Below, in pieces: positions 60,265 to 63,612 of a DNA stretch of 64,000 bases. The position numbers were made by a program, and so were the translations under genes. This DNA is from Promethearchaeota archaeon (GTDB lineage Archaea > Asgardarchaeota > Lokiarchaeia > Sigyniarchaeales > SOKP01). Position 1 is the stretch's first letter, and every line of letters begins with the position of its first letter. The stretch covers positions 160,001 to 224,000 of the forward strand of contig JBHLLT010000002.1 in assembly GCA_048938855.1 (NCBI GenBank). The letters are read 5' to 3'. The notes beneath the pieces are model-generated. The model saw nothing but the letters and a program-made list of their open reading frames with translations. It searched no databases and was not told the DNA's origin.

Positions 60265-60771
60265 GTGATCAATATTCACTTAGTCCTAACTTTTTTTCAT
60301 CAAATTAATGGCCCAAGTGTTTTATTATCTTACCCAGATGAAAAATTAGAAGAAAATCTCATCAACAAGTTAAAGAAATTTTTTGATTTAGATATTGATG
60401 AAACGTTTTTTGAAATAATATTAATAACTAAAAAAAAGAAAATAATTAATTTTAGTTTTGAGATCCCGTCGGAGTGGGCTCGAGGTAAAAAAGAATTTGT
60501 TATGCTCTCTTTAATAATGAAAAGAGAATATAAAAGTGAAGATCTTTACGCGTTCTTGGTCGATTCATGTTATAAAATCATAAATACTAAGAATGTATAT
60601 AAAGCACTCTATAAAAATTCAGATTTCCATTATAATGACATAGAAATTGATCTAAACTTTGAGATAATCAGAAAAATACTATTTAATTGTTTAAATAATT
60701 TGATATTAAGGATTGAAGATAAGATTAAAGGTGTAGATAAAAAAGAACCTTTTCCGTTTTCTAAAAAATAG
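60265..60771 (+). CDS. uDENN/longin-like protein
   Basis: LTFFHQINGPSVLLSYP resembles the uDENN/NPRL longin N-terminus; SEWARG motif. Confidence 0.6.
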   Translation: MINIHLVLTFFHQINGPSVLLSYPDEKLEENLINKLKKFFDLDIDETFFEIILITKKKKIINFSFEIPSEWARGKKEFVMLSLIMKREYKSEDLYAFLVDSCYKIINTKNVYKALYKNSDFHYNDIEIDLNFEIIRKILFNCLNNLILRIEDKIKGVDKKEPFPFSKK

Positions 60772-60773
60772 AA

Positions 60774-60784
60774 ATTTTTATAAT
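60774..60784 (+). promoter_or_regulatory. Putative TATA box for the downstream ncRNA
   Basis: TTTATAAT about 23-30 nt upstream of GGGAC at 60807; weak evidence in an AT-rich genome. Confidence 0.35.
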
Positions 60785-60804
60785 TTCATTATTCTATTTA
60801 TATA

Positions 60805-61122
60805 TTGGGACAACAATGACGGGCTAAATGCGTCAATCGAGGGCTCATAAAAATATTTGAATATATGATGATTATGAAGCGCATGAGTACGCATACACTA
60901 GAGTTGAGTAATCAATACATCTCCTGGAAAAATGGGCTCTTAACTTAGCAACAGATCAACGGTCTAGCAATGAAGTTTGAGTCAGTACCCTAACAGGAAA
61001 CATGATTACGTCCCAAAAAGGCATATAAATTAAAGCCTAGCACGAGAGAACATTTTTGATTTGAAAGGTATATCCTTAATATGAAAAAACAGTGTTAGTG
61101 TTTTAGGCAACAATAATATGCT
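60805..61122 (+). ncRNA. Box H/ACA guide RNA locus with three hairpins (60828-60897, 60922-61002, 61035-61112)
   Basis: Each hairpin has a lower stem, a pocket, an upper stem with K-turn/K-loop, and ACA 14-16 nt from the pocket top; hairpin 1 pocket is complementary to 23S UGC-U-A-CCUCGAU. Confidence 0.8.
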
Positions 61123-61130
61123 GAAATTTT

Positions 61131-61601
61131 TTAAAGCATACCAATGGAATCAGATCTAAATAATTCCTTCATTTCCTTACCTAACTCCGCTTGATCGGTT
61201 TGAAGATACCTGTTTAGAATTAAAGCAATTTTTGGGGACCATTTTTTCATTATAGCTCGAATGAAACCAATTTGAGCATTTTTATCCGCCACAATACATA
61301 AAACTCCTTTTCCAACTTTCATTGAAAAGATCATCCCTTCAAGATATTCGGTAATTTGCAAATCAATAGCCCCATAACCTAGAATATGACCCTGTTCCTC
61401 TCCTGCAACAAAAACAGCACCCCCTATAGCACCAATTTTTTCAACAGAGATCCCATTTTCATCAGAAAATTTAAATTTAGCTTGACTTAAAATCGTTATT
61501 CCTGTATCATCAGTGATGAGCGCAAATTTTAACCCGGGAGCACTATTTATGATTAAGGTTAAAATCTTCTTTAATCTAAGCTCATCCTCAGTGTAACTCA
61601 A
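61131..61601 (-). CDS. Roadblock/LC7 (MglB-like) protein
   Basis: ALITDDTGITI, IGAIGG, AQIGFIR. Confidence 0.85.
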   Translation of the reverse strand: MSYTEDELRLKKILTLIINSAPGLKFALITDDTGITILSQAKFKFSDENGISVEKIGAIGGAVFVAGEEQGHILGYGAIDLQITEYLEGMIFSMKVGKGVLCIVADKNAQIGFIRAIMKKWSPKIALILNRYLQTDQAELGKEMKELFRSDSIGML

Positions 61602-61809
61602 CTATATCTCTACCTATTAAATATTATCTCTTTTCCTATTAGTTTCTTTTAGGTTAAAATATAGTTATTTAAACCAAACTTTATATTTTTACCTTATACT
61701 GACTTGAGATAATGAAGTTATTTTAAATATAAAAATTTAAGTAAACAATGTGTTTCCTTACGAACCGCAACAAAAAACAATTTTAATTTCTTTTCAGTAA
61801 ATTTTTGGG

Positions 61810-62157
61810 TTAGAAAAGCTCTTGTGATTTAATTAAACCTTTTAAAGGTCTTAGCCGACTCTTATATTCTTTAGATTTATCCAATAATACTAATAGCTTG
61901 TAATTTTTAGTTTTGTCTAAATCTCGTTTAATTTGAACTAAATGTGGATCCTCTATAAACCCCCCCTTTTTAACAATTGCAGATAAAGCCAAAGTGTTTT
62001 CAAGTACCCACAATTTCTTCGATATTTTAGACGCGATTGGGAAACCATGGCGATCGGTAATAACTCCGGCAACAAAGCTTGGGAAATTTTTCTCGATCCT
62101 ATATAAAAAATAATTAACCTCACTTTGGTTTATTAGTTTATCCATTCTTTTTAGCAC
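61810..62157 (-). CDS. Roadblock-like protein
   Basis: AGVITDRHGFPIAS. Confidence 0.7.
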   Translation of the reverse strand: MLKRMDKLINQSEVNYFLYRIEKNFPSFVAGVITDRHGFPIASKISKKLWVLENTLALSAIVKKGGFIEDPHLVQIKRDLDKTKNYKLLVLLDKSKEYKSRLRPLKGLIKSQELF

Positions 62158-63357: not shown

Positions 63358-63612
63358 TTAATTTATTTTAGTATAAATTTTGTCGTCGGGGTTAAAAGAT
63401 TGATTAGATAAAGCTTTGATTGAAATAAAGGGAAAATCTATTGGACCGAAAACATCTTTAATAAATCCAATTTTTTCATACTTCTCATTGTACACTGAGT
63501 TTTTAATTATTTGTTCTAATTTATTATTCCATTGTTTTGCTCTAAAGATCTGATGATTTTTTGAGGATTTTCCGAGATAATATAGATTTAATTTAACCCA
63601 GTTCTTTTTCAA
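63358..63612 (-). CDS. gar1: H/ACA RNP subunit Gar1
   Basis: VYNE..IGFIKDVFGPIDFPFISIK; gar1-tfb synteny typical of archaea. Confidence 0.88.
   Translation of the reverse strand: MKKNWVKLNLYYLGKSSKNHQIFRAKQWNNKLEQIIKNSVYNEKYEKIGFIKDVFGPIDFPFISIKALSNQSFNPDDKIYTKIN

Follow-up and report, generated by a model that had tools for sequence, protein, structure and literature searches.

A candidate box H/ACA guide for 23S rRNA U2496 in a three-hairpin RNA of the Lokiarchaeia

The window, by which we mean the whole stretch of 64,000 nucleotides analysed, belongs to contig C49 of a host assembly of 3.95 Mb and 30% GC. In it, an RNA of three hairpins, whose features are given in Table 1, occupies the gap (60771–61131) that separates convergent genes. 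The RNA is flanked (60265–62157) by a 168-aa ORF with no Pfam match and a roadblock-like ORF with a weak MAPKK1_Int match; a similar gene and tfb flank it also in a genome of family f2 (L225 in G042). Genes for Cbf5 (with its DKCLD domain), Nop10, Gar1 and the L7Ae family are present in the host genome by family matches, which do not tell the two L7Ae-family genes apart. A protein in the 90% cluster of this Gar1 bears the name Ca. Lokiarchaeia. The ends of the RNA are predicted at approximately 60807 and 61121. A second TATA-like word at 60797–60804, which precedes hairpin 1 by about 25 nt in the host and is mostly not retained in homologues, might start a shorter transcript; a sigma-70 promoter scan was set aside as irrelevant for an archaeon. 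Metatranscriptome contigs from four studies, ~93–99% identical and so derived from relatives, all fall within 60824–61106, and come with neither strand nor level. Three of these contig sets span hairpins 1–3 and none lies on the immediate flanks, hinting at one stable transcript in relatives; we infer that the RNA is transcribed in the host too.

Table 1. Features of the three-hairpin RNA and its surroundings (positions in the window).
Feature	Position	Strand	Basis
TATA-box-like element, ~25 nt upstream of RNA 5′ end	60775..60783	+	sequence; same distance in most genus homologues; putative promoter
Three-hairpin H/ACA RNA, ~315 nt, HgcG/Pab40 ortholog by sequence comparison	60807..61121	+	alignments, covariance models, metatranscriptome contigs
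Outer clamp P0 (60807-09 with 61012-14), encloses hairpins 1 and 2	60807..61014	+	alignment pairing
C/D-like kink-turn capping hairpin 1	60812..60905	+	conserved tandem GA, covarying helices
Capping kink-turn C-stem	60812-14/60903-05	+	two-sided changes
Capping kink-turn bulge	60815-17	+	
Capping kink-turn tandem pairs	G60818-A60902, A60819-G60901	+	
Capping kink-turn NC stem	60821-22/60898-99	+	two-sided changes
Hairpin 1 (H/ACA motif: lower stem, pocket, upper stem, apical K-motif, ACA)	60829..60897	+	sequence, alignments, covariation
Hairpin 1 lower stem	60829-33/60889-93	+	sequence
Hairpin 1 5′ pocket strand AUCGAGG; predicted partner 23S 2498-2504	60836..60842	+	CGAGG invariant 54/54
Hairpin 1 upper stem	60843-49/60873-80	+	sequence
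Hairpin 1 apical K-motif	60850..60872	+	genus alignments; K-loop in most relatives
Hairpin 1 3′ pocket strand GCA; predicted partner 23S 2493-2495	60881..60883	+	homologue alignment
ACA box 1	60895..60897	+	exactly 14 nt from pocket top
Hairpin 2, predicted targets U2586 (ancestral) and/or U2554 (A-loop)	60909..61008	+	alignments, covariation
Hairpin 2 closing helix P3	60909-14/61003-08	+	
Hairpin 2 lower stem	60922-26/60994-98	+	
Hairpin 2 K-turn	60946-47/60969-73	+	
Hairpin 2 ACA	61000-02	+	
Hairpin 3, predicted target helix 69 (U1917, perhaps U1915)	61021..61121	+	
Hairpin 3 closing helix	61021-25/61117-21	+	
Hairpin 3 ACA	61110-12	+	
gar1 (H/ACA RNP subunit), adjoins tfb, 2.2 kb from RNA	63358..63612	-	Pfam Gar1 E 9.6e-07, 0.4 bit below cut-off; cluster members named Gar1

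Hairpin 1, inspected directly, is a real H/ACA hairpin: a lower and an upper stem flank an internal pocket, as in archaeal H/ACA motifs generally, and the distance of 14 nt to ACA lies within the 14–16 nt that separate an archaeal ANA box from its target U. The pocket of AUCGAGG and GCA described in the initial annotation, together with that distance, is thus borne out at 60829–60897. A register placing the first upper-stem G inside the guide was rejected, as it yields no consistent rRNA site, and a K-loop read from the inserted loop of the host alone was rejected too, that loop not being retained in the two closest relatives. An extra H/ACA hairpin proposed at 60952–61005 turned out to be part of hairpin 2, namely its top and 3′ arm, and inspection by eye led us to drop SRP RNA, RNase P RNA and a tRNA anticodon mimic as candidates. 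Rfam scans returned nothing at the locus or elsewhere in the window, the gathering threshold of RF00064 (HgcG) not being reached; in the 14 control genomes, among them M. jannaschii and H. volcanii, the RF00064 model never reached its cut-off either.

BLAST within the genus recovered 29 full or near-full homologues of the RNA, and a covariance model matched 119/131 other genomes of the family, with one full copy in each. This full-length model (R1) is nearly blind outside the host family, f1; a model of hairpin 1 (R2) reaches more widely and still misses genomes, so that non-detection is not to be read as absence. R2 matches extend across the phylum, mostly with the other two hairpins downstream, and include Ca. 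Heimdallarchaeum aukensis and Ca. Borrarchaeum. Two loci (L202 in G228 and L207 in G259) carry hairpin 1 without recognisable hairpins 2 and 3 downstream, and another (L198 in G240) apparently has hairpins 1 and 3 only.

Across 54 diverse aligned homologues the pocket of hairpin 1 is constant while the surrounding stems vary: CGAGG and GCA are unchanged in 54/54, and an ANA box lies at 14 nt in 50/54 (ACA 37, AAA 7, AUA 6). The first pair of the upper stem alternates between G-C and A-U and so sets the top of the pocket. Nine nucleotides separate the tandem GA from the pocket in relatives, where archaeal motifs have 9–10, a spacing that, like that of the ACA, fits published rules (PMC7075261). 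For the stems, 95% of cells were paired and 31/41 pairs showed two-sided changes in an alignment fitted to the model, which leans towards it; slid-partner controls gave 25–42%, and a plain MAFFT alignment gave 94% of cells paired and 14 pairs with two-sided changes. A minimum-energy fold of the whole 216 nt, in which the hinge pairs with hairpin 2, was rejected by this covariation.

Domain V of the host 23S rRNA was looked for in the host assembly and is absent, the target site not having been assembled. A 3.2 kb rRNA contig (C18; L001 in genome G000) was rejected as host rRNA, being probably a contaminant (68% identity to the genus rRNAs in 23S, 79–83% in 16S) that in any case stops before domain V; the only true host 16S present is 185 nt of its end on contig C40, at 99% identity. 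Ten 23S genes from the same genus all read UUGC-U-U-CCUCGAU (10/10), with which hairpin 1 forms 7+3 Watson–Crick pairs and leaves U-U unpaired, satisfying the archaeal H/ACA rule of bipartite pairing over at least 8 bp around an unpaired UN. This is the sole 10-pair site in the same-genus 16S and 23S set, and 5/2000 dinucleotide shuffles reached a 10-pair match. The initial annotation had given the same pairing with A as the base N: the pairing stands, N is in fact U, and since N is unpaired the exchange leaves the 7+3 duplex unaffected. The 12-mer with A, whose lack in 23S it had offered as counter-evidence, is formally lacking in the genus, which is irrelevant as the differing base is that unpaired N.

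Counted from A2451, which we take as the anchor in E. coli numbering, the target is U2496; the expected placement at around 2496, near the peptidyl-transferase centre (PTC), was therefore right. U2496 is present in 10/10 genus 23S sequences and in 38/40 further Asgard 23S stretches; the two that lack it are a bacterial-type sequence and an interrupted gene. The pairing supports the reading that the pocket of hairpin 1 is aimed at U2496, and the host's own 23S presumably carries the genus target sequence.

Several 23S sequences show peculiarities of their own near this site. At L254 (G167:C1:457535-457885) the 23S breaks directly 5′ of the 2498–2509 motif, at the hairpin 1 target, where an intron or intervening sequence may lie. 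The 23S stretch of L235 (G119, family f1) is of bacterial type and probably a contaminant. In the genus 23S genes (L035–L044) a variable hairpin insertion in helix 91, either an expansion segment or an intervening sequence, lies just 3′ of the PTC motif and is longest in G077.

We consider it very likely that hairpin 1, as the first unit of a Lokiarchaeia ortholog of HgcG/Pab40, functions as a box H/ACA guide motif and presents 23S U2496 for pseudouridylation. Under the archaeal model (PMC7075261), Cbf5 would hold the lower stem and ACA, L7Ae would bind the apical K-motif, and Nop10 and Gar1 would complete the particle; the pocket strands would pair with 23S on both sides of U2496–U2497, so presenting U2496, which adjoins the PTC at the base of helix 89, for isomerisation to pseudouridine. 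Assembly of this RNP and modification of U2496 would be expected in the host. Against this reading, the ACA, lying in a stem-closed internal loop, is unlike that of known archaeal guides, and predicted archaeal targets have failed testing before, 12/21 having been confirmed in P. abyssi.

The host copy of hairpin 1 is the weakest version seen, at 29.8 bits under the hairpin model against 57–77 for family members. Most homologues have a canonical K-loop (G at 2n, 24/29); the host and two close genomes instead carry A at 2n together with a short additional stem (60853–60864). Moreover, 48/54 relatives have a fourth 3′-pocket pair which the host, with U instead of A, does not, and its 3′ duplex is 3 bp, on the side reported as the more important. 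Such features would be expected had the family guided U2496 while the copy of the host lineage became weakened or inactive. We think this improbable: the three genomes all retain pocket, stems and ACA, and their inserted stems all pair. Hairpin 2 has U or A at 2n in the whole family, and Kt-23, with A at 2n, is bound by L7Ae (PMC3985660). The apical motif of the host may be read, from its sequence, as a non-standard K-turn, and because L7Ae accepts a K-turn with A at 2n, hairpin 1 is likely to be active in the host.

Outer helices surround the hairpins. The ACA of hairpin 1 sits in an internal loop above the capping kink-turn, in which G60818, A60819 and A60902 are invariant (29/29) and G60901 nearly so (28/29), and the ACA boxes of hairpins 2 and 3 are enclosed by helices of their own. 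The clamp P0 is paired in 29/29 homologues and in 99% of cells, with changes that are one-sided only. These extra clamps and the kink-turn suggest a role beyond that of a bare guide, and the genus has U-U at 2496–2497; the main role of the pocket might accordingly be that of an RNA chaperone or assembly guide, keeping 23S 2493–2504 open during large-subunit assembly, or the pocket might modify U2497 instead of or besides U2496. This is less probable still, as conversion within a run of unpaired U residues is normally confined to the most 5′ one (PMC7075261). The geometry, besides, is canonical for U2496, and across Asgard archaea position 2497 is U, A or C while 2496 remains U. It is hardly credible that the molecule is a hybrid C/D–H/ACA RNA like vertebrate scaRNA U85, its outer boxes also guiding 2′-O-methylation: a C-box-like word before hairpin 1 and a D-box-like word after the ACA do form a conserved kink-turn, but in the 10–12 nt preceding the D-like box, where a conserved antisense element would be expected, there is instead the variable lower stem with the ACA, and no C′/D′ pair was seen.

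With hairpin 1 taken as a guide for U2496, the order of motifs in the RNA is 2496, the 2586 region and helix 69, the target of hairpin 2 being ambiguous in the family. Of the non-Loki Asgard copies of hairpin 2 that were read, most fit U2586 with a 14-nt distance. In two genomes of the sister family f2, hairpin 2 has a canonical fit to U2554 (6+4 pairs, 15 nt), and that of L032 is also canonical for U2554; in family f1 the hairpin is mostly two-target, fitting both U2586 and U2554, each atypically. These pairing patterns (L183, L186 and L032 compared with L197 and L203) suggest that the target of hairpin 2 probably shifted from U2586 to U2554 of the A-loop within the Lokiarchaeia. Only tentatively would we go as far as the fuller proposal, which is rather less than an even prospect: that the Asgard ortholog of HgcG has an architecture of its own, its ACA boxes enclosed and its hairpins packed as one end-protected particle by outer helices and a C/D-like kink-turn, and that its second pocket moved within the Lokiarchaeia from U2586 to U2554, the site of yeast snR10, via a two-target intermediate that persists in family f1. 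The outer helices around ACA, the C/D-like kink-turn cap and the shift of hairpin 2 were not found in the literature searched.

Among the 23S sequences, several from the family have C at 2586 (L138 and L046 of G077; L227, L230 and L238–L240), and the 2586 guide of hairpin 2 has drifted too in G077. No helix-69 loop of the usual kind was found in the 23S genes of L047 (G061) and L046 (G077), and L047 and L048 diverge directly after position 2600, a pattern suggestive of insertions or introns at functional sites.

The analysis gives a concrete prediction of rRNA modification for Asgard archaea, for which no H/ACA guide was found in the papers searched, mostly those outside subscription journals. 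A guide motif for this PTC site is common to Thermococcales and to many Asgard families, that of Ca. Heimdallarchaeum aukensis included; Ψ2496 and an RNA guide for it therefore probably predate eukaryotes. A pre-eukaryotic origin of site and guide had already been suggested from Pyrococcus, so the surprise is limited; what a specialist would not expect is to find the ACA boxes enclosed and hairpin 2 apparently retargeted.

Yeast snR46 has the same target position as hairpin 1. The annotation's statement that the equivalent U2865 of yeast 25S rRNA is snoRNA-guided is correct: Ψ2865 lies in the PTC, is guided by snR46 and is modified in human too (PMC8307265). Spacing in P. abyssi (2549/2588/2603) equals that in yeast (2826/2865/2880), yeast 2826 being E. 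coli 2457. Hairpin 1, however, is built in the archaeal manner from a single motif with a K-motif as its L7Ae site, and a target in common would not by itself demonstrate descent of the guide. Its framing as an Asgard functional counterpart of a eukaryotic H/ACA snoRNA gives way to a closer relationship: it appears as an ortholog of HgcG/Pab40 motif 1, with the same pocket and a site modified in Pyrococcus abyssi (PMC2377435), and is not an Asgard-specific forerunner of snR46.

Parts of the RNA are recognisable in Haloarchaea. The sR-h45 RNA of Haloferax volcanii, which comprises homologues of Pf7 stems II and III, shares with hairpin 2 the AACCC guide for 2586, and its stem III is a helix-69 guide with pocket and lower-stem words matching hairpin 3; the AACCC guide of Pf7 stem II and the haloarchaeal stem III homologues are documented elsewhere (PMC2584109 supplement). 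Haloarchaea have no homologue of stem I, the counterpart of hairpin 1.

The closest likeness is to HgcG, known also as Pab40, Pf7, Afu4 and Tko1 (Rfam RF00064). Pab40 of P. abyssi has three motifs, of which motif 1 makes Ψ2588 in vitro at a site modified in vivo (PMC2377435), and in T. kodakarensis the equivalent site is modified and requires Cbf5, Nop10 and Gar1 (PMC6138745). Eight HgcG loci of Thermococcales type were retrieved for comparison: their motif 1 has a CGAGG/GC pocket, an upper-stem 5′ start as in hairpin 1, a K-loop and ACA at 14 nt, and thus shares with the Asgard hairpin its pocket, type of K-loop, ACA distance and target site. The order of motifs (2496, 2586 as proposed, helix 69) is identical. 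On sequence comparison the RNA is an ortholog of euryarchaeal HgcG/Pab40, and hairpin 1 its motif 1, because the three-motif order and stem words are shared; a match of pockets alone could reflect the common target. Unlike HgcG, the Asgard RNA is AT-rich with short stems, and its 3′ pocket strand is GCA instead of GCG. Whereas the Thermococcales motifs are simply adjacent, in the Asgard RNA an outer helix closes around each ACA, a kink-turn caps hairpin 1, and a clamp joins hairpins 1 and 2. Site and guide were thus already known from Pyrococcus; what is new is the Asgard form, with its extra closing kink-turn and outer helices.
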